Part shown: positions 683 through 52,455 of the stretch, one piece after another | How positions within the stretch are numbered: the stretch's first letter is position 1 | Layout of the letters: every line of letters begins with the position of its first letter | Origin: Minisyncoccia bacterium | GTDB taxonomy: Bacteria; Patescibacteriota; Minisyncoccia; Phycocordibacterales; UBA9973 | Reading direction: 5' to 3' | Assembly: GCA_049287305.1 (NCBI GenBank) | Contig: JBAQFO010000012.1 | Coordinates: 89,768-153,767 of the forward strand | Length of the DNA: 64,000 nucleotides | Translations under genes and position numbers: made by a program | Notes under the pieces: model-generated | Seen by the model: only the letters and a program-made list of their open reading frames with translations | Told to the model about the DNA's origin: nothing | Database searches by the model: none

Positions 683-969
683 AACAAAAAAGTTATGCAC
701 CTTGGGCATGGCGCTTCGGACGTTTAAGCGTATAGTGGTGTTGAATAGGGGGGAAGCGTGGACATTACCTGTGACAACTGCACGAATAGCAAAATCGGCG
801 ACTTGCTGGTTTGGATCAACAATCTGTGGGGATTCTCTTGCTCTCTTTGTGTGGCAAGATACGAGGAGCAGGAGCGGGAGAAGGAAATCTACCGCAGAAA
901 GTTCGAGGTAAGAGTGAGATAACACCCCGACCAGTTCAGAGAAGGAGGAAGATGAATAGTGAACCCCGT

Positions 970-1011
970 GCGGGCGCGCTCGAAGTTGAGTGCGCCCGCT
1001 TTTCTATTTTT
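970..1011 (+). terminator. intrinsic terminator: GCGGGCGCGC stem, 12-nt loop, GCGCCCGC, then a TTTTCTATTTTT tract
   Basis: A perfect 8-bp GC stem (970-979 pairing 992-999) is followed by a T-rich tract. Only the + strand has the U-run. Confidence 0.7.
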
Positions 1012-1099
1012 AAGTTATGCACTTTTAGAAAGGGCGTGGGGAATTTTTGAGCGTATACTATTGGAGAAACACAGTTCTCTTCGGGAAGGAGGAAGACAA

Positions 1100-1342
1100 G
1101 TGTTAGAGTCTGTTATTGAAGTTTCCGGCTCTTCTTGCTCCTCCTGTCATAGGAGCTTGGAGATTGGAAAGATGGAATGGATTCCCAACGTGGGAGTCAT
1201 GTGTGATGGGTGTGTGAAGCATTACTGGGAGTGGCACAAGGAGTGGGCAGAAGTTCAACGACAGAGGATGATGGAAGATGAAGAATGGTCAGCAGAAGAA
1301 GTTGAAGTTGCTTCGCTTGAAGAGATGGCACTCGTCTCTTGA
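1100..1342 (+). CDS. small GC-rich protein with CSSC...CDGC (CxxC-x22-CxxC), putative zinc ribbon; hypothetical
   Basis: GTG at 1100 is in frame with ORF 959..1342 and is preceded by the SD GGAAGGAGG 8 nt upstream. GC content and GC3 are far above the window background. There is no homology call. Confidence 0.3.
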   Translation: MLESVIEVSGSSCSSCHRSLEIGKMEWIPNVGVMCDGCVKHYWEWHKEWAEVQRQRMMEDEEWSAEEVEVASLEEMALVS

Positions 1343-1728: not shown

Positions 1729-1734
1729 ACTTTT

Positions 1735-1954
1735 ACAGGCGTTCGAGGGGAGATCACCCCTTCGCCCCGCGAAGCGGGGCAGGCTTCGGGAAGAATTAAG
1801 TAGAACCCGACGGGCAAGCCCGTTATAGCCGTAATGAGAAACCCCGCTCGAAGCGGGTAAAAACAAAGGTGGTACCACGAGCAAAGAAACTCGTCCTTGT
1901 TCAGCAATTCAGTCAGTCTTTTGAATTGTTGTCCGAGGACGAGTTTTTTATTTT
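1735..1954 (+). promoter_or_regulatory. T-box riboswitch-like leader with intrinsic terminator, upstream of ileS
   Basis: AAAGGTGGTACCACGAG at 1865-1881 matches the T-box consensus AGGGTGGNACCGCG at 12 of 14 positions, including the UGGU bulge that pairs with tRNA ACCA. A terminator immediately downstream has arms AAACTCGTCC (1887-1896) and GGACGAGTTT (1937-1946), an inner helix CAATTC/GAATTG and a TTTTTTATTTT tract. GATCA in an upstream hairpin would give an AUC specifier followed by A. Confidence 0.5.
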
Positions 1955-2035: not shown

Positions 2036-2296
2036 ATGGACAAAAAAGAAAAAACCATAAAGTTTCTTGGAACGCTTGGCACAACCATAGCTATACTTAT
2101 GTTCGTTTCGCTTCTTGAAATCGCCCGAGCAAACATAAGAGGCGAGAGTCATATATTCATACAGCCGATTATGGTTACAATAAATTGTTTTACTTGGTCA
2201 TTGTATGCTTATCTTAAAAAAGAAAAGTTCGTATTTTGGGCAAATTTCCCAGGAGTCCTACTTGGAATTATTACAATAATAACAGCTTTTATATAA
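2036..2296 (+). CDS. small three-helix membrane protein with SemiSWEET-like topology
   Basis: 86 aa with three hydrophobic segments and Trp and Asn at SemiSWEET-like positions (FTWSLYAY, FWANFPG), but no PQ motif. The stop lies 2 nt before the ileS ATG. Confidence 0.35.
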   Translation: MDKKEKTIKFLGTLGTTIAILMFVSLLEIARANIRGESHIFIQPIMVTINCFTWSLYAYLKKEKFVFWANFPGVLLGIITIITAFI

Positions 2297-2298
2297 AT

Positions 2299-5200
2299 AT
2301 GAGTGAAGAAACAAAAAAAATCATAGAAAAATCTGACGCAGCCTTCCGCGAAGAGAAGGTTTTGGAATTTTGGAAAGATAATAAAATTTTCAACAAGACG
2401 CTGGAAGCAAGTGCCGGCAAGAAAGAATTTATTTTTTACGACGGTCCGCCTACTGCTAACGGCATGCCGGGGATTCACCACCTGATTCCGCAATCTTTTA
2501 AGGATGCTATTCCGCGATATAAAACAATGCGCGAGTTCCATGTCCGCAGAAAGGGGGGCTGGGATACTCACGGCCTTCCCGTTGAACTCTTGGTGGAAAA
2601 AGAACTGGGATTGAAATCAAAAAAAGAAATTGAGAGTTACGGTATTGCCGCCTTCAACCAAAAATGCAAAGAAAGTGTCTGGAAGCACGTGGATGTCTGG
2701 TATAAATACCGCGACCGAGTCGGATACTGGGTGGACAAGGATAATCCATACGTTACTTACCACAACGAATTCATTGAGTCGCTGTGGAGTGTGGTGAAAA
2801 AAATAAACGAACGCGGACTACTTTATAAAGATTATAAAGTAGTGCCATGGTGTCCGAGGTGCGGGACGGCGCTGTCTTCACATGAGCTTGCCCAAGGATA
2901 TGAGGACGTAAAAGATTTATCGGTGACGGCAAAATTCAAAGTTGTCGGACAAAACAATACTTATATCCTGGCATGGACGACGACTCCATGGACGCTTCCA
3001 GGGAATGTGGCACTCGCTGTTGGAGAAAATATTGATTATGTAAAGGTGAAAGTAGGAGCCGAGCTTTATATTTTAGCCAAAGCCCGACTTTCTATAATAA
3101 CCGAATCTTACGAGATAGTGGAAGAGATAAAAGGCGGAGGGCTGATTGGCTTGGAATATGAACCGCTGTTCCCATATTTCAAAAATACGATTTCCGAAAA
3201 TGAAAAACCAAAACTGGAAAAAGCCTTCCGGGTGCATAAAGCAAACTTTGTAACCACGGAAGACGGCACGGGGGTAGTGCATACCGCCGTAATGTATGGA
3301 CAGGACGACTTTGTGCTCGGGAACGAAGTCGGCTTGCCGAAACATCATATGGTAGGGCTGGATGGAAAATTCCTTCCCGGGACTGGCATATTTGAAAGGC
3401 GCTTTGTAAAAGACGAGGAAGTTGCCGTAGATATAATCAAAGATTTGGCTGGACGAGGGCTTCTTTTTAAAAAAGAAAAATACGAACACTCGTATCCGCA
3501 TTGCTGGCGATGCAAAACTCCGCTCATATACTACGCGAGAGATTCTTGGTATATCAAAATGTCTGACCCGAAAATAAAAGCCGAACTCATCAGCCAAAAC
3601 AAAGAAATAAATTGGGAGCCGGCGCATACCCGCGACGGACGTTTCGGCGAATGGCTTCGGGAGATAAAAGATTGGGCAATATCACGTGAGCGATATTGGG
3701 GAACACCGCTTCCGGTGTGGTCTTGCGAAACTTGCAAGAAAACCGAAGTGCTCGGGAGCATAGAAGATATAAAATCTAAAGCAAAAAAATCCGGAAATAA
3801 ATATTTGGTAATGCGGCACGGCGGAACTAATGCCAACAAGAAAGGACTTGTAAGCTATAAAAATGAGGCAAGCGACCACCTGACGGAAGAAGGGAAAAGG
3901 CAAGTCACGGCAAGCGCGGAGAAACTAAGTAGCCAAAAAATAGATTTAATTGTGGCGTCTCCCTTTGTTCGCACTAAAGAAACAGCATTAATAGTTAAAG
4001 ACAAATTTGGCCTCGGCGAAGACCAGGTTGTTTTTGACTCGCGCTTGGCGGAATTTGACCCTGGGGATTTTGACGGCAAAGAATGGAAAGATTATCACAG
4101 ATATATTGCTAGCTCAGGGTCTGGATGGTTCAATCAAACAATCCCGGGCGGAGAATCCCTCAAGGATGTGGGGGAGAGGACGGCGTCCCTCTTATATGAG
4201 ATTGAAAATAAGTTCAGTGGAAAAAATATTCTCATTGTTACCCATGGCGGACCGGCATGGCTTTTGTTCGTTAATTCTGGGTTGTTTATACCAGGAGGCG
4301 AGGCTTATAGGATTCCAAACGGAGAATCTTTCGTAAAAGAATTTCAACAGCTAAGGAATGCCGAGGTTAGAGAGTTACCGTTCGCGCCGTTGCCCCATAA
4401 TGAAAAATACGAATTGGATTTGCACAAACCTTATATTGATGAAGTAAAAATGGTTTGTTCCTGCGGAGGAGAACTTATCCGCACCAAAGAAGTCATGGAC
4501 GTGTGGTTTGACTCTGGTGCAATGCCTTTTGCTCAGGACCACTATCCGTTTGAAAATAAAAAATGGGTGGAAGGGCCCGGGTTCCCTGCGGATTTTATCG
4601 CGGAGGCCATAGACCAGACGCGCGGATGGTTCTATACGCTACATGCCGTCGGAATTTTGATGGGGCGAGGCAAGGCATATAAAAACGTGATTTGCTTAGG
4701 TCATTTACTAGACGCCAAAGGAAAGAAAATGTCCAAGTCTCTCGGCAACGTAGTGAATCCGTGGGAAGTAATGGATAAATATGGAGTGGACACATTACGC
4801 CTGTGGATGTATTCCATAAACCAGCCAGGGGAGTCAAAGAATTTTGACGAGAAAACGGTGGCGCTTCTCTCTCAGCAAGTTTTCGGACTGCTTTACAATG
4901 TGCTGGCCTTTTACGAACTTTACCGAGACAAAAGCTACGAAGATAACTCCAGACCAAGCTCTAAAAATATTTTGGACAAATGGATTCTCACCCGTCTTTT
5001 TGAATTAAGGAATGATGTAACAGCCAACATGGATAGTTATAAATTGTTGGAACCTGTGCGAGGAATGAGAGATTTCATCGGAGACCTTTCTACTTGGTAT
5101 TTAAGGCGGTCCCGAGAAAGAATAAAGGAAGGCGACTCGGAAGCGAAGGCCACTTTATATTTTGTGTTGAAGAGTCTAGCCAAGCTGATGGCTCCGTTCG

Positions 5201-5808
5201 CCCCTTTCGCTGCGGAAGACATCTGGTTAAAACTTAGAACAGACAAAGATAAAGAAAGTGTGCATTTGGAAAATTGGCCGACCGAATCCAATATTTTAGG
5301 CATTCTAATGCGACTACCCGGACAAATGCGCACCCTGGTCTACATGGATGAAGTAAGGAAAATAGTAACCCTGGGACTTGAGGCTAGGCAGAAAACCGGG
5401 ATAAAAGTCCGCCAGCCACTTGCCTCCATCAAGGTAAAGTTCGGGAAGCTTGGAGCGGAATACTTGGAATTAATAAAAGAAGAACTGAACGTGAAAGAAA
5501 TAATCTTTGATGATTCAATTTCAGAGGAAGTATTGCTGGATATAAGAATAGACGAAGAACTGAAAGCGGAAGGAAGCTATCGCGAACTTGTGCGGGCTCT
5601 TCAGGATATGAGGAAAAAATCAGGACTTACGCCGAGCGATGTCATAGCGCTTACCATTGCAACAAACGAAGACGGGAAAGCGTTGATTGAGAAATTCCAG
5701 GCGGACATGAAGAAAACAGTTCTTGTCTCAAATATAGAATTTGCTGAAAATGACGGGGAGAAAATAGTAGTTGATGAGTTGGTTTTCAGGGTTAAGATTG
5801 AGAAATAA
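2299..5808 (+). CDS. ileS: isoleucyl-tRNA synthetase (type-2, Thermus/eukaryote-like) carrying an inserted histidine-phosphatase domain
   Basis: The HIGH-class motif PTANGMPGIHH and the KMSKS motif are both present. The CP1 editing region (TTTPWTLPGN), WGTPLP and DVWFDSG are also there. The start is ATG 2299 (MSEETKK); the track ORF from 2236 is an upstream extension. Confidence 0.93.
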   Translation: MSEETKKIIEKSDAAFREEKVLEFWKDNKIFNKTLEASAGKKEFIFYDGPPTANGMPGIHHLIPQSFKDAIPRYKTMREFHVRRKGGWDTHGLPVELLVEKELGLKSKKEIESYGIAAFNQKCKESVWKHVDVWYKYRDRVGYWVDKDNPYVTYHNEFIESLWSVVKKINERGLLYKDYKVVPWCPRCGTALSSHELAQGYEDVKDLSVTAKFKVVGQNNTYILAWTTTPWTLPGNVALAVGENIDYVKVKVGAELYILAKARLSIITESYEIVEEIKGGGLIGLEYEPLFPYFKNTISENEKPKLEKAFRVHKANFVTTEDGTGVVHTAVMYGQDDFVLGNEVGLPKHHMVGLDGKFLPGTGIFERRFVKDEEVAVDIIKDLAGRGLLFKKEKYEHSYPHCWRCKTPLIYYARDSWYIKMSDPKIKAELISQNKEINWEPAHTRDGRFGEWLREIKDWAISRERYWGTPLPVWSCETCKKTEVLGSIEDIKSKAKKSGNKYLVMRHGGTNANKKGLVSYKNEASDHLTEEGKRQVTASAEKLSSQKIDLIVASPFVRTKETALIVKDKFGLGEDQVVFDSRLAEFDPGDFDGKEWKDYHRYIASSGSGWFNQTIPGGESLKDVGERTASLLYEIENKFSGKNILIVTHGGPAWLLFVNSGLFIPGGEAYRIPNGESFVKEFQQLRNAEVRELPFAPLPHNEKYELDLHKPYIDEVKMVCSCGGELIRTKEVMDVWFDSGAMPFAQDHYPFENKKWVEGPGFPADFIAEAIDQTRGWFYTLHAVGILMGRGKAYKNVICLGHLLDAKGKKMSKSLGNVVNPWEVMDKYGVDTLRLWMYSINQPGESKNFDEKTVALLSQQVFGLLYNVLAFYELYRDKSYEDNSRPSSKNILDKWILTRLFELRNDVTANMDSYKLLEPVRGMRDFIGDLSTWYLRRSRERIKEGDSEAKATLYFVLKSLAKLMAPFAPFAAEDIWLKLRTDKDKESVHLENWPTESNILGILMRLPGQMRTLVYMDEVRKIVTLGLEARQKTGIKVRQPLASIKVKFGKLGAEYLELIKEELNVKEIIFDDSISEEVLLDIRIDEELKAEGSYRELVRALQDMRKKSGLTPSDVIALTIATNEDGKALIEKFQADMKKTVLVSNIEFAENDGEKIVVDELVFRVKIEK
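3796..4410 (+). other. in-frame histidine phosphatase (PGAM/SixA-like) domain inserted in IleRS between the WGTPLPVW...KAKKSG and LDLHKPYIDEV segments
   Basis: The catalytic RHG is at 3814-3822 (LVMRHGGTNAN). Further PGAM-type segments are LTEEGKRQ, IVASPFVRTKETA, RLAEFDPGDFDG, PGGESLKDVGER and a second His motif ILIVTHGG (His near 4243). A Thermus-type IleRS has only about 40 aa between these flanking motifs. Confidence 0.7.
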
Positions 5809-5838
5809 AATTCTCGTTCTTGTCTTTAAAAAGAATAG

Positions 5839-5847
5839 TGGTATAAC
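5839..5847 (+). promoter_or_regulatory. extended -10 TGgTATAAC for the small GC-rich gene
   Basis: Read from the sequence. It is followed by GGAGG at 5854-5858 and ATG at 5866. Confidence 0.4.
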
Positions 5848-5865
5848 AAGACTGGAGGCCTAAGC

Positions 5866-6063
5866 ATGGTCAATTGCGAGAGCTGTCAGATGCGGTCGCT
5901 CAAGGAATGTGAACGGTGTGCAACCAATTTCCTCATGGAAAACAAGTGCACACCGGAAGGGGCTCCTGTTCAGGTGGAGCCCTTCGACGCACGCAACCGC
6001 CTTCGGTTCGACCCGAACATGTTCGTGTCGAACCGGAAGCGTCGCCAGCTCAATCCGTCCTAA
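5866..6063 (+). CDS. small GC-rich Cys-motif protein (CESC-x9-CERC), hypothetical
   Basis: The SD GGAGG sits 7 nt before the ATG and a terminator lies downstream. Codons are strongly GC-rich compared with ileS. The region also holds a 12-bp inverted repeat, CTTCGGTTCGAC...GTCGAACCGGAAG. Confidence 0.35.
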   Translation: MVNCESCQMRSLKECERCATNFLMENKCTPEGAPVQVEPFDARNRLRFDPNMFVSNRKRRQLNPS

Positions 6064-6086
6064 GTCCAGCATCCTCTGCTGGCAGA

Positions 6087-6132
6087 ATCCGTCGGGAGCG
6101 CACCTTCGTTGCGCCCGACGGATTTTAATTTT
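6087..6132 (+). terminator. intrinsic terminator: ATCCGTCGGG ... CCCGACGGAT with inner GCGCA/TGCGC, then TTTAATTTT
   Basis: A perfect 10-bp outer stem plus a 5-bp inner stem, followed by a T tract. Confidence 0.7.
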
Positions 6133-6148
6133 ATGGTAAAATATAGTT

Positions 6149-6790
6149 ATGAAGATCAAGAAACTTGGACACTCCTGCCTAGTAATTAATATTAACGGGG
6201 CTAAGATAATGTTGGACCCCGGCAAGTATTCTCTGTCTCAGGTTGAAGAAAGGGATATTGACATAATTCTAATCACGCACGAGCATAGTGATCATTGCCA
6301 CTTAGAATCTATTAAAAAGATATTGGAGAATAACCCACAAGCAGAAATAATTACCAACTTTTCGGTAGGGAAAATTCTGGAGAAAGAAAGTATTAACTAT
6401 GCAATGATTGAAGATGGGCAGAAGGTTGTAAGTCATGGTGTTACTATTATTGGTGTGGGGAAATTACACATAGAAGCACATCGTAGAATTCCTGTGGTTC
6501 CAAATACTGGTTTTATAATAAATGACAAGTTTTTTTACCCCGGGGATGCGTTGCACATACCAAAACATAAGGTAGAAGTTGTTGCCTTTCCTGTTGGCGG
6601 AGGATTTCTTAAAATCAGCGAAGTTGTTGAGTGGCTCGAAACACTTAAACCCAAAGTGGCTATTCCTGTGCATGATGGCCTACTAAACGAAGACGGTAAA
6701 AAAACTTTCTATAAAAATTACCAAAATATCCTTACAGGCACCGGAATTGAATTTAAGGCATTAGAAGTAAATAAAGAAGAAGAATTTTGA
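6149..6790 (+). CDS. MBL-fold metallo-hydrolase
   Basis: ITHEHSDH (the HxHxDH motif) and further His and Asp ligands downstream. Confidence 0.8.
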   Translation: MKIKKLGHSCLVININGAKIMLDPGKYSLSQVEERDIDIILITHEHSDHCHLESIKKILENNPQAEIITNFSVGKILEKESINYAMIEDGQKVVSHGVTIIGVGKLHIEAHRRIPVVPNTGFIINDKFFYPGDALHIPKHKVEVVAFPVGGGFLKISEVVEWLETLKPKVAIPVHDGLLNEDGKKTFYKNYQNILTGTGIEFKALEVNKEEEF

Positions 6791-18393: not shown

Positions 18394-18440
18394 AGGCATT
18401 ATACTATCAGAATAAACTGCATTCCGCAATAAACACCTTT

Positions 18441-18469
18441 TTGACAATTAGCACTTTTTCGTGTTAAAT
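18441..18469 (+). promoter_or_regulatory. sigma70-type promoter TTGACA-17-TTAAAT
   Basis: Read from the sequence. GAAGGAGG follows at 18477-18484 and ATG at 18490. Confidence 0.55.
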
Positions 18470-18489
18470 GCTTTTTGAAGGAGGTAGGT

Positions 18490-18777
18490 ATGACATACCT
18501 ACGGGGCGTTGAGACCTACGGGGTCGAGGATGGGAAGTACTTCAGACAGTGGAGTTTCCTCGACAAGGAGGAGAGGACGCAAGTCTTCCTCCTCGCCGCT
18601 GAGATGGAGGACGTCCACAAGCGTCAGGACGTCGTCGAGATGAACCTGCGAGAAGTCTCGGAGGTCGTTTCCGAGGGGACCCTCCAGGGGATGGTCGACG
18701 GTCTGTTCGAGAGGATGGAGCCCATTCTCAAGGCCACAGACGTCGTGCGCATCGCTGTCGGAGAAGGTCTGAAGTAG
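18490..18777 (+). CDS. small acidic protein with compositionally foreign (high GC3) coding sequence; hypothetical
   Basis: Canonical promoter, SD and ATG. Codons are almost all G/C-ending (gag, gac, gtc, ctc), unlike neighbouring efp and recA. A mirror ORF on the antisense strand is typical of GC-rich coding DNA. Confidence 0.45.
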   Translation: MTYLRGVETYGVEDGKYFRQWSFLDKEERTQVFLLAAEMEDVHKRQDVVEMNLREVSEVVSEGTLQGMVDGLFERMEPILKATDVVRIAVGEGLK

Positions 18778-18858
18778 GGGAGAAGTCACAATCGGTTGAG
18801 CTGGTGTGGACAGGGAGCTGTCGCACTAGCTCTTTGTTCTTTTACTCCAATTTTTATT

Positions 18859-19899
18859 TTAAGCTTCCTCTGCAAACTTTTTCTTTATAACTTTCATTAT
18901 TTCTCCTGAGATTTTTTTATCTCCTTTTAGAAATGTGCGGGTAGCGTCATATCCGACTCCGAGCTTTACCTTTTCACTACCTTCGGGTGCGTAGAAATAC
19001 GAGTTTCCGCTTTTTTCTATAATTTTAAATTTTTCTCCGAGCGCCATGATTTCTCCCTCTCTGGAAATACCTTCGTTGTAGATGATATCAAATTCCGTCT
19101 GCTTGAACGGAGCGGCGACTTTATTCTTCACTATTTTCACGCGGGTGCGGGAACCGACGACATCTTCCCCTTTTTTGATTTGAGCGATTTTTCGGATATC
19201 AAGCCGGACAGAAGTATAGAATTTCAGAGCTTTTCCTCCCGGGGTTGTTTCCGGGTTGCCGAACATTACTCCTATCTGCATTCTGATTTGGTTTATGAAA
19301 ATAACCGATGTTTTAGAGCGGGCGACAATAGCAGTCAGCTTCCTTAACGCTTGAGACATAAGGCGAGCCTGCTTGCCGACGTGGTATGCTCCCATGTCTC
19401 CTTCAATTTCATCCTTCGGCGTGAGGGCGGCAACAGAGTCAATGACGATAACATCAATTTTCCCGGTTCGCACCAAAGACTCCACGATTTCAAGTGCCTG
19501 TTCTCCGTTGTCGGGCTGAGAGATAAGAAGGTCGTTTATATTTACTCCGAGTTTCTTGGTGTAGTCGGGGTCCATGGCGTGTTCGGCGTCTATGTATGCG
19601 CATATACCGCCCAATTTTTGAGCTTCAGCCACAATGTGAAGCGAGAGAGTGGTTTTCCCCGAAGATTCAGGTCCGAATATTTCAATAATTCTTCCGCGGG
19701 GGATTCCGCCTACTCCGAGAGCCATATCAAGTCCGATGGAGCCCGTGGGGATGACGTTTATATCCACCTTTGGCGAATCTCCGAATTTCATTATGGAACC
19801 TTCTCCGAATTTGGTTTGGATGGCTTTCAGCGTGTCATTTAGAACTTCGCTTCCGCCTCCTATAGTCTTATCTTCCCTTTTTTCTTTTTTCTTTGCCAT
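18859..19899 (-). CDS. recA: recombinase RecA
   Basis: Walker [11 protein letters not shown] and RecA loop motifs. Confidence 0.95.
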
Positions 19900-48604: not shown

Positions 48605-49909
48605 TTAATAGGTGAACACCTTCGCAATTGTTTTAAGAACAATCAAGATATCAAAAAAGATGGTTCTGTTTTTTATATAATAAAAATCATATCTTAATTT
48701 TTCCCTAGCATCTTCTACGGAAGACCCGTATTTGTAATTTACCTGAGCCCAGCCCGTCAATCCTGCTTTCACGGAATGTCTTAAATCATAATATAAGATA
48801 TCTTTTTTTAATACATTTATAAATTCTGGTCTTTCGGGACGAGGGCCAACAAAAGAAATATCACCCCTTAGAATATTTACTAATTGCGGAATTTCATCTA
48901 TGTGTGTTTCTCTCATAAATCGTCCAATCGGTGTTATCCTAGGATCCCTTCTGTTGTTTTCTGTCCAAACAGCGCCATTCTTTTCTGCATCAACATACAT
49001 AGATCTAAATTTATAAATAGTAAACTCTGTGTCATTCAGACTAATTCTCTTGTGTTTAAATAATACTGGCCCCCTTGATGTTATTTTAATTAGAATAGGA
49101 ATAATTATAAAAAGAGGTAAGAAAACAATCATTAATACGAAAGATAGACTCGCATCCAAAGCTCTTTTTGTAAAGTTGAAAATAGCTCTATTTTTGCTTA
49201 AATAATCCACAATTTCTTCCTTTTCTATTTTTTCAGTTGGAACTTTTTGAAATATTTCTGCATAAAAATTATTTATTGTGTATGCGAAAATTCCTCTCTT
49301 GATAAGAGTATAAATCTTATCAAATTCTTTTTCTGAAATTGAATTTATGACGACTAGGTCTGGATTTAGATTTATTATTTCATTTAAATCAAAATTGTTT
49401 GTTTCTTTTATAATTTCATAACCAATATTTTGATTTTGTTTTAACTCTGAGACCAAACTATTTTCTCCCTCGCTTATAATAATTATTTTCCTGTTAACCC
49501 CTTTTTTTACGAAATATCTCTTAATCAGGATTCTTAAATAAAAATCACTGATTCCAAAGATTGCTGTGAATAAAACCAAATTTGTTTTCGGAGTTAATTT
49601 AAAAAAATCTCCAAACATATAAAAGATCAAAGCAGAGAGAGCGAATGACACAGCCAAGCTTTTTATAAAAGAGTTGGTGAATTCAGCTGTGTTTTTGTTA
49701 AATCTAAAAGAGTATAAATTGAATATATAAAAAATAAGTAAAAACAAAAGGATGATAATAGAAAAGGGAAGAGCGTGGGCAGTTATTTGAGAATAAAGAT
49801 CACTCCCTCCATACCTTATAAAAAGCATCAAAAAAAGAGCACCAAAAGCGACAATTAAATCAACAATAAAAATAAGAAACATCTTAAATTGTATAAGTAA
49901 ACCCTTCAT
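48605..49909 (-). CDS. undecaprenyl-phosphate sugar phosphotransferase (WbaP/bacterial sugar transferase family)
   Basis: N-terminal TM helices and the conserved C-terminal sugar transferase domain (PRPERPEF-like region, ending DILIVLKTI). Confidence 0.8.
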   Translation of the reverse strand: MKGLLIQFKMFLIFIVDLIVAFGALFLMLFIRYGGSDLYSQITAHALPFSIIILLFLLIFYIFNLYSFRFNKNTAEFTNSFIKSLAVSFALSALIFYMFGDFFKLTPKTNLVLFTAIFGISDFYLRILIKRYFVKKGVNRKIIIISEGENSLVSELKQNQNIGYEIIKETNNFDLNEIINLNPDLVVINSISEKEFDKIYTLIKRGIFAYTINNFYAEIFQKVPTEKIEKEEIVDYLSKNRAIFNFTKRALDASLSFVLMIVFLPLFIIIPILIKITSRGPVLFKHKRISLNDTEFTIYKFRSMYVDAEKNGAVWTENNRRDPRITPIGRFMRETHIDEIPQLVNILRGDISFVGPRPERPEFINVLKKDILYYDLRHSVKAGLTGWAQVNYKYGSSVEDAREKLRYDFYYIKNRTIFFDILIVLKTIAKVFTY

Positions 49910-50055: not shown

Positions 50056-50475
50056 ATGATAAGAGGATTTACTTGTGGAGCTATGGACTTGTTGCATGCG
50101 GGACATATTTTGATGTTAAAAGAATGTAAAACTCAATGTGATTTTCTTGTAGTGGGGCTACAAACTGATCCAACCATAGATAGACCAGAAAAAAATAAAC
50201 CCATAGAAACGTTAGAGGAGAGATTGATACGTCTAGAAGGATGTAAATACGTGGATGGGGTGGTAACGTATGACACAGAAGAAGATCTTTATCAGCTTCT
50301 TCTAAAACTAAAACCCGACCTTCGTTTTATGGGAGCGGACTGGAAGAGTAAGAAGAATTATTCCAGAGACAAACTTCCTTCTATGCAAGTTATTTACAAC
50401 AGTCGAGACCATGGATACTCTAGTAGTGACTTAAGGAAAAGGATTATGAACAGCCAGAAACCCCACGGGATTTAA
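50056..50475 (+). CDS. cytidylyltransferase-like nucleotidyltransferase (TagD/RfaE-II type)
   Basis: CGAMDLLHAGH (HxGH motif), 139 aa. Confidence 0.75.
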   Translation: MIRGFTCGAMDLLHAGHILMLKECKTQCDFLVVGLQTDPTIDRPEKNKPIETLEERLIRLEGCKYVDGVVTYDTEEDLYQLLLKLKPDLRFMGADWKSKKNYSRDKLPSMQVIYNSRDHGYSSSDLRKRIMNSQKPHGI

Positions 50476-50573: not shown

Positions 50574-50882
50574 ATGGAAAATGATTCAATCAACGAAAAT
50601 ATCCCTGAAGAAGACAAAGCTCCGACTCGACTTGAGATAATTCAAAGCAAAAAGAATCTAATAATGCTGATAGTTGGAGTCTTGGTTTTGGCGACCTTGG
50701 CTATTTTCGGAGCTTCAAAATATTTGAAACCCGTGAGACTTGAAACCATAGAAGATGGTTGCCGTTCGGGCGACAGATTTAGTCAGACGACAGGCAAGCC
50801 GTGTCAGGGAGGAGAATTGCCTCCGACTTGCCTAGAAGGAGACCTCTTCAATCATGAAACGGGTGAACCGTGTCTGGAATAA
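50574..50882 (+). CDS. small membrane-anchored protein with two Cys-bracketed repeats
   Basis: A TM helix followed by CRSGDRFSQTTGKPC and CLEGDLFNHETGEPC. Confidence 0.5.
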   Translation: MENDSINENIPEEDKAPTRLEIIQSKKNLIMLIVGVLVLATLAIFGASKYLKPVRLETIEDGCRSGDRFSQTTGKPCQGGELPPTCLEGDLFNHETGEPCLE

Positions 50883-50903
50883 AACATTTTTAATTTTGGA
50901 GCA

Positions 50904-50932
50904 AGCCGCCCGAAGGGCGGCTTTGTGTTTTT
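50904..50932 (+). terminator. intrinsic terminator: AGCCGCCC GAA GGGCGGCT then TTGTGTTTTT
   Basis: Perfect 8-bp stem followed by a T tract. Confidence 0.8.
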
Positions 50933-50958
50933 CCTCAATATTGATACAATTGGCGCAT

Positions 50959-51153
50959 ATGATGGATATTGTTTTAAAACTTCTCTTCTTCCTGTTCATC
51001 CTTCCTTATTTGATAATTGAGGAGGGGATTGAAATGCTAAATGGCTACAGGGTAAAGCACGGCAAGCCAAAAATAAAAATGGACTGGATGACCTTCACTC
51101 TTGTCGCTCTCGTAATTGTTGTCATAATTTTATGGCTCAATGGTTTCCGTTAA
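50959..51153 (+). CDS. small two-helix membrane protein, hypothetical
   Basis: The start is placed at MMDIVLK, after the terminator hairpin that the track ORF would otherwise include. Confidence 0.3.
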   Translation: MMDIVLKLLFFLFILPYLIIEEGIEMLNGYRVKHGKPKIKMDWMTFTLVALVIVVIILWLNGFR

Positions 51154-51217
51154 TCCTAGAACTATAAGCTGTGGGTGCAATTTGCTTCCTTTGTTTTAGT
51201 TGATATAATCAGCTCAT

Positions 51218-51376
51218 ATGATTACGAAACACTTTTTCAAACGCTTGGCTGTATTTTTATTCATGATAGCCCTCGGAATGGCGGGTGTTCTTCTCCTTGG
51301 CAACATAAAATTTAACGATAAAGAAGCCGAAACAGTCCAAACTGCATCCGAGCCTTGCGTTGGCGACGAGTGCTAG
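51218..51376 (+). CDS. 52-aa signal-anchored peptide ending CVGDEC, hypothetical
   Basis: TTGATA/TATAAT lies 8 nt before the ATG. It is not in the ORF track because it is under 60 aa. A hydrophobic core follows a basic N-terminus. Confidence 0.25.
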   Translation: MITKHFFKRLAVFLFMIALGMAGVLLLGNIKFNDKEAETVQTASEPCVGDEC

Positions 51377-51471
51377 CCGAGTAACTTTTGCCCCGATGCC
51401 CCACAGGCCAAAGTCACGCGGGGTTTTTATTTTGACTAATATATGTATACTTAAGGCGAAAGGAGACGCCC

Positions 51472-51714
51472 ATGCTCTTGTGTGAACTTATCGTTCGGTG
51501 TGAGAAGTGCCCTCGCGGTGAAGATGGGGATCTTCAAATATGCCACCTTATACAGGTGTGGACGGGCGGCGTTGGTGTGTCCGTGGCAATCGCAACCTGT
51601 GAAAGGTGTGGCTACCAAGAGGAGTGTGATATCTCCTATCCCGCACTCGTCGCAGAGCACGAGGAACGAAGCAGTCGGGTTGTCCCGAATCCCGAATCTT
51701 CGTTCGTCATGTAG
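51472..51714 (+). CDS. small GC-rich Cys-rich protein (CEKC...C..CERCGYQEEC), hypothetical
   Basis: AGGAG 6 nt before the ATG; a downstream hairpin AGGGGC...GCCCCT is followed by a T tract. GC content is well above the window background. Confidence 0.4.
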   Translation: MLLCELIVRCEKCPRGEDGDLQICHLIQVWTGGVGVSVAIATCERCGYQEECDISYPALVAEHEERSSRVVPNPESSFVM

Positions 51715-51926
51715 TGAGGGGACAATGAAGAATCATCAGAGCCTGAGTTGTTCAGGAAAGGGGCAAAACGCAAGTTAGCCCCTTTATCATTTCCAGGCTT
51801 GCGGTTTGGACGAATTGTGATATATTACATATACCGCAGAGAAAGTAGGCACAGATAGTTTATCTGGTTAAGTCCTATTTAGTGGGTCGATATTCCTTTT
51901 GCCTATATGGTGGAATGGAAGAAAAA

Positions 51927-51950
51927 CTTGCGGCGGAAGCCGTTTTTTTG
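51927..51950 (+). promoter_or_regulatory. attenuator-like hairpin (CGGC GGAA GCCG then TTTTTTT) in the rplJ leader
   Basis: A GNRA-capped stem plus a U-run about 30 nt upstream of the rplJ ATG. Many bacteria have a regulated rplJ leader. Confidence 0.45.
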
Positions 51951-51975
51951 TTGAAAAAAATTAAATCAAAAAATT

Positions 51976-52455
51976 ATGTTACAAAAATCAAAAAAGGAGG
52001 AAATGATAAAAGACCTGGAAGGAGCCATTAAAGGTTCCGAATCTTTGGTTTTTGTTAATTTCCATGGCTTGAAAGTAGCCGACGAAACCAAGTTAAGGAG
52101 AGCTTTGCGAGACAACGGAGTAAACTACAAAGTGTCTCGAAAGACTCTTTTGAAACGCGCTCTTGAAGGCAAGGCGGAAGGAGAATTGCCTGAACTTGCC
52201 GGAGAAGTAGCGATAGCGTATTCCAAGGACGGCACCGCGTCTCCTCGCGAAGTTTACAACTTCCAGAAAGCGAATAAAGGTCTTCTAAACATTATCGGAG
52301 GCATATTCAATGGAAAATTTGTGGATGGAGCATATATGATGGAGATTGCGACAATCCCTTCCAAGGAAGTTTTGCTTTCAAAGTTCGCATTCTTGCTGAA
52401 GAGCCCAATGCAGAGATTTGCCTTGGCCTTGAGCGAAGTGTCAAAGAAAAAATAA
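51976..52455 (+). CDS. rplJ: 50S ribosomal protein L10
   Basis: Matches the L10 family; followed by rplL. Confidence 0.9.
   Translation: MLQKSKKEEMIKDLEGAIKGSESLVFVNFHGLKVADETKLRRALRDNGVNYKVSRKTLLKRALEGKAEGELPELAGEVAIAYSKDGTASPREVYNFQKANKGLLNIIGGIFNGKFVDGAYMMEIATIPSKEVLLSKFAFLLKSPMQRFALALSEVSKKK

Follow-up and report, generated by a model that had tools for sequence, protein, structure and literature searches.

Immediately upstream of rplJ, the window (the whole stretch of DNA analysed here, 64 kb in length, from a CPR genome of Nomurabacteria type) carries two tiny open reading frames on the plus strand, ORF C and ORF D. An earlier note had located both of them, together with a TATAAT 8 nt before the first ATG and an AGGAG Shine-Dalgarno (SD) motif in front of the second, and all of these were found again at the same positions. 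It had also described a single GC-rich islet that encodes both proteins, which is true in part: a GC peak extends over 51333-51809, but the GC content of ORF C is ordinary (0.44, comparable to 0.43 for rplJ), and the islet proper covers about 51377-51811. The features of the interval are the following:

51201-51209, plus strand: extended -10 promoter element of ORF C (TGATATAAT), read from the sequence
51218-51376, plus strand: ORF C, 52 aa, ending in CVGDEC (tblastn, alignment, public gene call)
51351-51369, plus strand: left copy of an imperfect direct repeat (AGCCTTGCGTTGGCGACGA; repeat family D2), over the last codons of ORF C
51377-51811, plus strand: lineage-specific segment with elevated GC, about 435-444 bp long, bounded by the stop codon of ORF C on one side and by the conserved promoter and leader of rplJ on the other
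51377-51434, plus strand: imperfect long hairpin (51377-51421) followed by GGUUUUUAUUUUG, a possible ORF C terminator (RNAfold)
51460-51465, plus strand: SD of ORF D, AAGGAG, 6 nt before the ATG, read from the sequence
51472-51714, plus strand: ORF D, 80 aa, a predicted C4 zinc ribbon (phmmer and profile search, invariant residues, codon pattern)
51725-51778, plus strand: possible 17-aa mini-ORF (MKNHQSLSCSGKGQNAS) of uncertain status, read from the sequence
51757-51785, plus strand: hairpin AAAGGGGCAAA / UUAGCCCCUUU followed by AUCAUUU (inverted repeat I5), a possible terminator insulating the cassette from the rplJ promoter
51795-51813, plus strand: right copy of the imperfect direct repeat (AGGCTTGCGGTTTGGACGA; D2), which holds the rplJ -35 element TTGCGG (51799-51804)
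51818-51826, plus strand: extended -10 element of rplJ (TGATATATT), context outside the islet
51818-51950, plus strand: conserved rplJ leader context including the extended -10 (nucleotide conservation in about 25 relatives)

The earlier claim that each frame is followed by a hairpin and a T tract holds insofar as both elements exist, but their loops are long or their stems imperfect, neither was called by the terminator scan, and neither is significantly more stable than shuffled sequences. The first (-14.8 kcal/mol in RNAfold, z -0.9 against shuffles) lies within the lineage-specific segment and is absent from relatives, where the rplJ -35 element adjoins or overlaps the stop codon of ORF C. 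The stem of the second is kept in the RNAfold centroid (z -1.6), while its 13-nt loop and weak U tract are non-canonical. Since the hairpins flanking ORF D are non-canonical and no good sigma-70 -35/-10 pair was found upstream of it, ORF D may be co-transcribed with ORF C. The mini-ORF starts 10 nt after ORF D and is preceded by GAGGGG at a distance of 5 nt; a short SD-preceded ORF also trails the ORF D homologues on L041, L042 and the contigs of P0004 (31 aa) and P0005 (101 aa), a likeness of position only.

ORF C and the rplJ promoter

The product of ORF C begins with MITKHFFKR, continues with a predicted transmembrane helix (residues 10-28) and ends with a 24-aa tail that closes in CVGDEC. 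The gene is present in the gene calls of the public assembly, and of the 37 relatives more than 20 gave a tblastn match at the corresponding locus (22 syntenic loci). An alignment of 19 members (A5) revealed a conserved N-terminus, MxTKHFFKxLxxFxxMIxLGLxGV, in which F6, K8, F13 and I17 are invariant and H5 is kept in at least 90% of the members; throughout the family the MxTKHFFKxL start is followed by a single hydrophobic helix, with total lengths of 41-67 aa. ORFs C, B and A and the other islet ORFs gave no above-threshold match in Pfam, NCBIfam, PHROGs, PADLOC or PDB sequences. Judged by these alignments, ORF C belongs to a conserved, unnamed Nomurabacteria family whose genes directly precede the rplJ promoter. 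As an ancestral Nomurabacteria gene it would encode a peptide of about 50 aa with a positive N-terminus (MITKHFFKR) and one transmembrane helix, the short variable tail of which is predicted to face outward.

The TATAAT at 51204-51209, preceded by TG-A, forms an extended -10 element, which is separated from the ATG at 51218 by 8 nt (51210-51217). Among 23 ORF C genes, 14, including that of the window, have a TGnTAnnnT box ending 6-10 nt 5' of the ATG, and an SD is absent from all 14. Because the extended -10 ends only 8 nt from the ATG and no SD is present, the ORF C mRNA is probably leaderless, with transcription predicted to start from a promoter element that abuts the start codon. In relatives, the last codons and the stop of ORF C serve at the same time as the -35 element of the rplJ promoter, which there reads TTGCAA or TTGCTA. 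ORF C is thereby a well-supported comparative case of a putatively leaderless small membrane-protein gene, the 3' end of which doubles as the -35 element of rplJ.

The adjacent stretch 51830-51950 resembles the L10 (rplJ) leader RNA (RF00557) in being a structured, conserved 5' leader with a UUAAG bulge-like motif and in having a terminator hairpin and U run immediately before rplJ; this terminator-like hairpin (51930-51943, followed by a T run) was called by the terminator scan. The stretch is not recognised by Rfam even at E<=10; it occurs in relatives without ORF D and lies outside the GC islet. RNAalifold was applied to the rplJ leaders of the relatives, the alignment of which was too gappy for a consensus.

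The ORF D family and its predicted zinc ribbon

An exhaustive phmmer and profile search of about 15 billion predicted proteins placed ORF D in a family of five full-length proteins, to which one distant relative can be added. The homologues P0002-P0005, which the word-indexed search had missed, have 80-82 aa and identities of 38-44% (phmmer), the match spanning residues 1-69 or more of the 80. The distant relative (L024 1735-1959, E 4.5e-5) lies beside an ORF B homologue and retains both CxxC knuckles. Every homologue lies on a contig of a metagenome or environmental assembly, two family members sit on contigs shorter than 1 kb, and where the context is known it is CPR-like, with either rplJ synteny or a Nomurabacteria-type neighbour gene. 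The family has 17 invariant columns, including all four ribbon cysteines; among the residues kept in all five members are C10, C13, P14, G19, C24, H25, W30, G35, C43, E44, C46 and G47, which yields the signature CxxCP...CH...W...CExCG, and a C-terminal FVM, VVM or AIM is common to P0002-P0005. At the DNA level, pairwise differences amount to 0.35-0.44, 0.23-0.42 and 0.48-0.68 at the first, second and third codon positions, respectively, and about half of the conserved residues (15-19 of 30-44 per pair) are encoded by different codons. Furthermore, the homologues on L041 and L042 have a GGAGG-type SD 5 nt 5' of the ATG.

On this pattern of conservation, ORF D is a genuine protein-coding gene, as the earlier note had supposed for both tiny frames: ORF C recurs in more than 20 relatives and ORF D in the family described above. 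The note had named conservation of RNA structure alone, with the frames not conserved, as the outcome that would speak against it; the reverse was observed, and no conserved RNA-only signal was found. That ORF D is instead a chance ORF or a decaying fragment in recently acquired foreign "junk" DNA would fit its atypical codon usage, the failure of the word-indexed protein search to return anything other than the query, the lack of a match in 185,579 species-representative genomes, and the fact that gene callers left it uncalled on two of three identical public contigs. We regard this as very improbable, given full-length homologues of the same size with invariant Cys, His, Trp and Gly residues and the same synteny in an independent lineage, while short frames with two CxxC pairs are expected only 0.73 times per 64 kb. 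The least probable of the readings weighed here is that 51377-51811 specifies a structured non-coding RNA (an sRNA, or a cis-regulatory rplJ leader of extended length), with ORF D as a by-product. In AT-rich genomes a GC-rich island is often an RNA gene, a T-box leader makes up part of the first islet of the window, and the whole 796-nt stretch folds better than shuffled sequences (z -3.0), but no Rfam match reached the gathering score anywhere in the window, matches at E<=10 within 50900-52100 were just noise, and the scan for tRNA and tmRNA found nothing. Moreover, the segment lacks nucleotide conservation in relatives while the true rplJ leader downstream is conserved, and the homologues are conserved as proteins, with synonymous turnover and with start, stop, length and SD kept.

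The product of ORF D is acidic (pI 4.6) and contains the cysteine pairs C10xxC13 and C43xxC46; an example of a tryptic peptide is GEDGDLQICHLIQVWTGGVGVSVAIATCER. Two conserved CxxC knuckles about 15-40 residues apart, as is characteristic of zinc ribbons, are present in the family. The AF2 model (pLDDT 58) places strands at residues 2-9, 23-32, 36-43 and 49-52, flanking the knuckles, and a helix at the C-terminus, and its best Foldseek matches are zinc ribbons (Rpb9, Pol I A12.2, TFIIS and Rpp21), all of them non-significant (best E 0.39). The predicted topology, with CxxC knuckles borne on beta-hairpins, is similar to that of the C-terminal zinc ribbons of Rpb9, TFIIS and Pol I A12.2, a likeness of a pLDDT 58 model at E >= 0.39 and TM 0.3-0.4, with no sequence relationship. 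ORF D would specify a soluble acidic C4 zinc ribbon with CxxCP and CExCG knuckles on beta-hairpins. It would also have a further Cys-His and a Trp, both conserved, as well as an acidic helix at the C-terminal side and a hydrophobic C-terminus that is kept in the family; zinc binding is predicted. No Pfam, NCBIfam, PHROG, PADLOC, PDB or Rfam family matched ORF D. The only curated family to be considered is FmdB/Zn_ribbon_8 (PF09723; TIGR02605, CxxC_CxxC_SSSS), whose members are likewise small bacterial proteins in which a Ser-rich or acidic tail follows a zinc ribbon with two CxxC pairs. P0004 matches it weakly (E 0.002-0.005), with scores far below the cut-offs (18.4 bits vs 34.4 and 16.8 vs 31.3 for PF09723/TIGR02605) and with the first knuckle of FmdB paired to the second knuckle of ORF D, and the window protein itself gave no match to either model.

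The one-domain zinc-finger micro-proteins of Haloferax volcanii are comparable by description, not by homology: they are tiny, have two CxxC-type knuckles (CEKCP and CERCG in ORF D), and their stand-alone genes mostly belong to no database family (Nagel et al., 2019, PMC6562870). These archaeal proteins have fewer than 70 aa, are mostly basic or neutral and play regulatory or adaptive rather than enzymatic roles, whereas ORF D is bacterial (CPR), 80 aa long and acidic, with a C-terminal helix and the extra conserved Cys-His (PMC6562870). Because the product is tiny, acidic and without a catalytic motif, it may be read as a zinc-stabilised protein-binding or regulatory module rather than as an enzyme or a nucleic-acid binder. 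ORF D is probably an accessory, fast-evolving C4 zinc-ribbon micro-protein that binds other proteins. The best reading of its distribution is a very small, fast-evolving, accessory family, restricted to the CPR and absent from the closest sequenced relatives. As a real gene that was called on only one of three identical public contigs, ORF D appears to found a new CPR-restricted small-protein family, and since CPR genomes are reduced and poorly understood, cataloguing such micro-proteins matters.

Origin of the segment and its place beside rplJ

From the ORF C stop to rplJ the window has 599 nt. The same distance is 105-301 nt in 20 of 22 relatives; the other two, L016 and L030, have 405 nt and 863 nt, respectively. 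Nucleotide similarity to the 37 relatives is absent from about 51380 to 51810 and resumes at about 51812. L004, the closest relative (rplJ 91% identical), lacks ORF D and has just 122 nt from the stop of ORF C to rplJ, and the segment is missing from all of L004-L007 (rplJ 87-91% identical). With respect to composition, the 243 nt of ORF D have a GC content of 0.539 against a mean of 0.398 +/- 0.066, a value that only 1.25% of stretches of this length reach, and the GC content of the segment as a whole is in the top 1.2-1.4% of the 64 kb. The comparison with genome composition suggested in the earlier note also sets ORF D apart, since its GC3 of 0.57 (GC 0.54) exceeds the maximum of 0.50 among 38 long ORFs (0.36 +/- 0.085). 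Its own amino acids combined with the codon usage of the genome would give a GC of 0.47, and half of the rise is due to amino-acid composition and half to GC-richer synonymous codons. Two homologues with available DNA have GC3 values of 0.51 and 0.55, compared with 0.38 in the sole flanking gene available (L041).

Taken together, we consider it likely that the interval comprises two independent small protein genes of different age, the ancestral membrane-anchored ORF C and the lineage-specific zinc-ribbon ORF D. The segment has the atypical composition and the absence from close relatives of a horizontally acquired islet, but donor or mobility genes were not found, and collections of phages, plasmids and viruses gave no homologue. 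Searches with tblastn against phages and blastn against plasmids matched nothing and so lend no support to an origin from either. The ORF D family also yielded no DNA loci in genome, metagenome or viral contig collections.

A more specific proposal is that the segment is a small mobile or recombining cassette and the ORF C/rplJ junction a hot spot at which direct repeats regenerate the rplJ -35 element. An imperfect direct repeat indeed lies exactly at both junctions (D2, 74% over 19 nt, spacing 444), and the two junctions align locally, gaps allowed, with a score of 28, which 47 of 2000 shuffles reach (p ~0.024); a perfect 9-nt inverted repeat (TTTTGCCCC/GGGGCAAAA, I9) lies near both ends of the segment. 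Other inserts occupy the same junction in L018 (a 290-aa gene) and L030 (a GC-rich insert with a minus-strand 147-aa ORF), and one lies nearby in L006; the distribution of ORF D is sporadic, and the GC3 of the two homologue genes is raised as well. Against this, the repeat statistics are weak, with about 0.4 such 9-mers expected by chance (an estimate), and the direct repeat is suggestive only. The segment is present in a single copy in the 64-kb window, the four GC islets are mutually dissimilar, and neither an integrase nor a transposase was found, so that the multiple copies and transposase of a MITE or IS element are both missing here. Vertical descent with repeated deletion accounts for the same data, and we regard the cassette as unlikely. 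It would be compatible with the best explanation of what ORF D encodes. More doubtful is an extended form in which the Nomurabacteria ORF C/rplJ junction gains and loses integrase-free micro-cassettes via direct repeats that rebuild the -35 element, each unit consisting of an SD, a tiny zinc-ribbon gene, a mini-ORF and a hairpin at persistently raised GC, and in which the other GC islets would belong to the same pool circulating among CPR. The position of ORF D, just upstream of rplJ-rplL in all three known contexts and in two independent lineages, could alternatively reflect a functional tie to the L10/L12 stalk operon, as a zinc ribbon that is ribosome-associated or regulates the stalk; several bacterial ribosomal proteins are small zinc ribbons. 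On the contig of P0004 (12,587 bp; that of P0005 has 2,668 bp, and both are from JGI 3300050046) the gene order is 62 aa, 50 aa, the 80-aa homologue, 31 aa, rplJ and rplL, the first two being equated with ORFs B and C by size and order only, while on that of P0005 the 80-aa homologue is followed by a 101-aa ORF, rplJ and rplL. This tie is improbable, since the product is acidic, unlike ribosomal proteins, ORF D is missing from the closest relatives, the distant L024 homologue lies 4 kb from rplJ, and a hairpin and the rplJ promoter stand between ORF D and rplJ. A permissive, recombination-prone junction is a likelier reason for its place beside rplJ than a role in the ribosome.

For the two-gene reading, the value of the interval lies in annotation; it presents no new type of system, and its function cannot be deduced from sequence alone. 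The variable junction upstream of rplJ may also serve as a marker of gene flux in these lineages.

The four GC-rich islets of the window

The four islets named in the earlier note are exactly the four strongest GC peaks of the 64 kb (1189-1948, 5815-6185, 18440-18879 and 51333-51809). Its proposal that they form a recurring class is correct with regard to composition and architecture: between the genes lie four short frames that have an SD in front and contain two CxxC pairs, against 0.73 +/- 0.82 in block shuffles, and all four have a raised GC3 (0.49-0.71). It does not extend to descent, as the ORF D family showed no homology in hhalign to either the ORF at 1100-1342 or that at 5866-6063, and blastn, whether run between the four islets or with the present islet against the 64-kb window, found no similarity and no repeats. 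The class is real in composition and architecture only, and is not a homologous or repeated element. A tandem paralogy of 1100-1342 and 749-919 had been considered and was dropped when BLASTP gave no significant match. The ORF at 18490-18777 was an orphan in the word-indexed search. A census of short dual-CxxC frames at the rplJ loci of relatives returned mostly out-of-frame noise; apart from a fragment of a zinc-type S14 gene in L022, plausible small ORFs were limited to L024 and L033. The first islet also holds the T-box leader RNA, and the cysteine-free islet ORF at 18490 has a GC3 of 0.80.

ORF C and the rplJ promoter

The locus is flanked on its 5' side by a glycan-synthesis block and followed by rplJ-rplL-purH, and four small plus-strand ORFs (A to D) lie within 50574-51975:

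48605-49909, minus strand, Bac_transf gene at the end of the glycan block
50056-50475, cytidylyltransferase-like gene at the end of the glycan block
50574-50882, plus strand, ORF A, 102 aa
50959-51153, plus strand, ORF B, 64 aa, start corrected using homologues
51218-51376, plus strand, ORF C, 52 aa
51472-51714, plus strand, ORF D, 80 aa
51725-51778, short ORF after ORF D, 17 aa

The sequence of the locus is identical in JBAQNI010000004.1 (assembly GCA_049303715.1) and in two Logan contigs. L10 of the window is 46-91% identical to that of 34 MAGs, most of which carry the label Candidatus Nomurabacteria, Paceibacterota or Patescibacteria and three of which were submitted as uncultured Saccharibacteria; the window is therefore from a CPR genome. 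ORFs A and B are also kept in the nearest relatives, and the gene order in the closest one, L004 (L10 91% identical), is A-B-C-rplJ. The product of ORF A is membrane-anchored, has no match in Pfam and carries a repeated GCxxGDxFSxxTGxPC-like Cys motif, for which tblastn returned multiple matches to further genes within the loci of the relatives, a few of them beside PG-binding-like sequences.

More than 20 relatives have a homologue of ORF C directly 5' of rplJ (tblastn and ORF listings). In an alignment of 19 members the N-terminus reads MxTKHFFKxLxxFxxMIxLGLxGV, a basic stretch followed by a single hydrophobic helix, while the tail is variable and hydrophilic and usually ends in VAK; by the positive-inside rule, this tail would face outward. 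The C-terminal CVGDEC pointed out in the earlier note is present, and such a Cys-bearing end (C.G..C) is common only to the ORF C proteins of the window, L004 and a further relative, L030. Upstream of the gene, 8 nt separate the end of TGATATAAT from the ATG. Of 23 ORF C genes, 14 have an extended -10 element (TGnTAnnnT) ending 6-10 nt short of the ATG, and all 14 lack an SD, so that the mRNA is probably leaderless. ORF C is an ancestral, conserved small membrane-protein gene, ordinary in kind but well documented.

In most relatives (L007, L013 and others; approximately window 51795-51826) the end of ORF C, GTT GCA AAA TAG (...VAK*), overlaps the TTGCAA -35 element of rplJ, and the conserved extended -10 and leader of rplJ follow within about 20 nt. 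This double role of the ORF C 3' end may be the reason for the conserved VAK ending. The nucleotide sequence of the rplJ promoter and 5' leader (51818-51950, plus strand) is conserved in about 25 relatives, around a core of TACCGCAGAGAAAGTAGGC...UUAAGUCCUAUUUAGUGGGUCGAUAUU with a terminator hairpin after it. Inspected by eye, the AAGUAGG/CCUAUUU stem shows compensatory changes from T-A to C-G in three relatives (L024, L027 and L030), and the Rfam L10_leader model did not detect the leader even at E<=10. Between the leader terminator and the start of rplJ, two relatives (L006 and L017) have in common an additional conserved block, about 100 nt long.

ORF D, a gene for a probable zinc-ribbon micro-protein

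ORF D is preceded by AAGGAG 6 nt upstream of its ATG and, in line with the CxxC-rich frame of the earlier note, encodes two CxxC pairs (C10xxC13 and C43xxC46). A word-indexed protein search returned the query itself as the sole match; an exhaustive phmmer search of 1.84 billion cluster representatives identified three homologues, and a profile search added a fourth. All four are 80-82 aa long, show 38-44% identity and can be aligned over their full length, and 17 columns of the family are invariant (C10, C13, P14, G19, C24, H25, W30, G35, C43, E44, C46, G47, E50, S55, E64, E65 and the C-terminal M). Among the three members with available DNA, divergence is 48-68% at third codon positions versus 23-44% at positions 1 and 2, and about half of the identical residues are encoded by differing codons. 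The homologues on the fetched contigs L041 and L042 have a GGAGG-type SD upstream. ORF D is a real protein gene, even though the segment holding it is specific to the lineage. Two alternative reading frames, 51482-51778 on the plus strand and 51451-51660 on the minus strand, had no matches in relatives. Of the three identical public contigs, a gene is called at ORF D on the 1.1-kb Logan contig and missed on the NCBI assembly contig and the 2.9-kb Logan contig, so that ORF D is effectively unannotated in the public record.

Searches with ORF D against Pfam, NCBIfam, PHROG, PADLOC and PDB sequences gave nothing at threshold; the best match to a curated family, FmdB/Zn_ribbon_8, was sub-threshold and seen for one homologue (P0004) only. 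The low-confidence AF2 model (pLDDT 58) flanks each CxxC knuckle with beta-strands and has a helix spanning residues 56-69, and the top Foldseek matches of this model, all non-significant, are the zinc ribbons of Rpb9, Pol I A12.2, TFIIS and Rpp21. Since the protein is acidic (pI 4.6) and has neither a TM segment nor a signal peptide, it is read here as a soluble C4 zinc-ribbon micro-protein, with a predicted role in protein binding or regulation as a Zn-stabilised module. Among described proteins, its nearest counterparts are the Haloferax micro-proteins with a one-domain zinc finger (PMC6562870), a functional analogy and no claim of homology.

The gene order is 62 aa - 50 aa - [80 aa] - 31 aa - rplJ - rplL on the contig encoding P0004 and [80 aa] - 101 aa - rplJ - rplL on that encoding a second homologue, P0005, with a spacing similar to the window. 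Including the window, all three known ORF D contexts, from two independent lineages, are thus directly upstream of rplJ. By size and order, the 62-aa and 50-aa genes would correspond to ORFs B and C. In every case an SD-preceded short ORF follows ORF D, the likeness being one of position and SD only. ORF D is an accessory gene that recurs beside rplJ and founds a new family with very few members, its type (predicted zinc-ribbon micro-proteins) being a known one.

When all fetched loci were translated in six frames and searched with the family profile, one more, distant member was identified in L024 (1735-1959, E 4.5e-5), which keeps the four ribbon cysteines and lies directly 3' of an ORF B homologue. 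It is followed there by a 223-aa ORF (2080-2751), a putative IS200/RayT-like tyrosine transposase as read from the motifs YHVYNRG...HLNP, and about 3.5 kb of other genes separate the latter from ORF C/rplJ. In another relative, L033, a 70-aa dual-CxxC ORF (5485-5697, plus strand; CPFCG...CNKCK) is located directly 5' of the ORF C homologue, in a position like that of the L024 gene; it has no significant similarity to the family of ORF D (E about 1-2).

Origin of the segment carrying ORF D

The distance between the ORF C stop and rplJ is 599 nt in the window and 105-301 nt in 20 of 22 relatives, the outliers being L016 (405 nt) and L030 (863 nt). In L004 the gap is 122 nt and ORF D is absent. 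Nucleotide similarity to 51380-51810 is absent in every relative compared and restarts sharply at about 51812. An imperfect direct repeat marks the segment edges, with copies at 51351-51369 and 51795-51813 that are identical at 14 of 19 positions. The right copy provides the rplJ -35 element, TTGCGG; a gapped alignment of both junctions scores 28, which is reached by 47 of 2000 shuffles. This repeat is compatible with either insertion with target duplication or repeat-mediated deletion in the relatives from an ancestral arrangement. The same junction holds a 290-aa gene of ordinary GC in the relative L018 (4989-5861) and a GC-rich segment (0.54-0.66) with a minus-strand 147-aa signal-peptide ORF in L030 (5190-5800). 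The junction is evidently permissive; a reading of it as a hot spot for integrase-free cassettes, situated at the rplJ promoter, is considered improbable. In L006, about 300 nt just 5' of the ORF C homologue (5150-5450) reach a GC of 0.70 (genome 0.43), with frames that are Arg-rich junk only.

The GC1/2/3 of ORF D is 0.62/0.43/0.57, and GC3 of 38 long ORFs is 0.36 ± 0.085 (maximum 0.50). Amino-acid composition and genome codon usage predict a GC of 0.47 rather than the observed 0.54, so that an abundance of Cys, Gly, Arg, Glu, Ala and Val explains about half of the excess and an atypical choice of synonymous codons the other half. GC is also above that of the flanks in the L041 and L042 homologues (GC 0.47-0.49, GC3 0.51-0.55), which points to raised GC as a family trait or to a shared GC-richer gene pool. 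A link of ORF D to phages, plasmids or viral contigs was looked for and none was found.

The GC-rich islets

All features listed in the earlier note were found where it had placed them, and its interpretation is partly supported. The four top GC peaks in the 64 kb are the four islets that it named (1100-1342, 5866-6063, 18490 and 51180-51800). Within the last, described as a GC-rich islet encoding one or two tiny proteins, ORF D is indeed GC-rich (0.539, a value reached by just 1.25% of windows; the window mean is 0.398 ± 0.066), but ORF C is ordinary (0.44). The hairpins and T tracts said to follow each gene are present but non-canonical; they were missed by a terminator scan, and their stability is not significantly above shuffles.

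The proposal of a single recurring class holds for raised GC and for an excess of cysteine frames. A census of stop-to-stop frames of 40-140 aa with two CxxC pairs across the whole window yielded four, compared with 0.73 ± 0.82 in block shuffles (maximum 3 in 100):

749-919, plus strand, dual-CxxC frame, intergenic, GC-raised
956-1339, plus strand, dual-CxxC frame, intergenic, GC-raised
5839-6060, plus strand, dual-CxxC frame, intergenic, GC-raised
51436-51711, plus strand, dual-CxxC frame, intergenic, GC-raised

The proposal fails for common descent, as neither homology among these frames nor shared DNA repeats were found. The ORF at 18490 is a Cys-free orphan (GC3 0.80). A T-box leader (1733-1901, plus strand; 49.3 bits, E 2.5e-9, under the Rfam gathering score of 93, with a clear AGGUGGUACCACG T-box sequence), located 5' of the gene for a class I (Ile-type) tRNA synthetase, makes GC-rich islet 1 partly an RNA element. 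For these reasons the islets are a mixed collection of RNA elements and of accessory micro-genes with raised GC, neither a single family nor a single mobile element.

Just 5' of the islet-1 ORF, an SD-preceded 54-aa ORF (758-922, plus strand) contains two CxxC pairs (VDITCDNCTNSK...FSCSLCVARYEE...), without significant similarity to the islet-1 ORF. The latter is separated from the T-box by about 400 nt of GC-rich sequence (1342-1733, peak 0.59) with no convincing ORF or Rfam match. The tRNA synthetase gene (2236-5808, plus strand) encodes a class I enzyme of 1190 aa (tRNA-synt_1, Anticodon_1 and DUF5915), which harbors a complete histidine-phosphatase domain (His_Phos_1, aa 524-678, E 1e-30) within its catalytic region.
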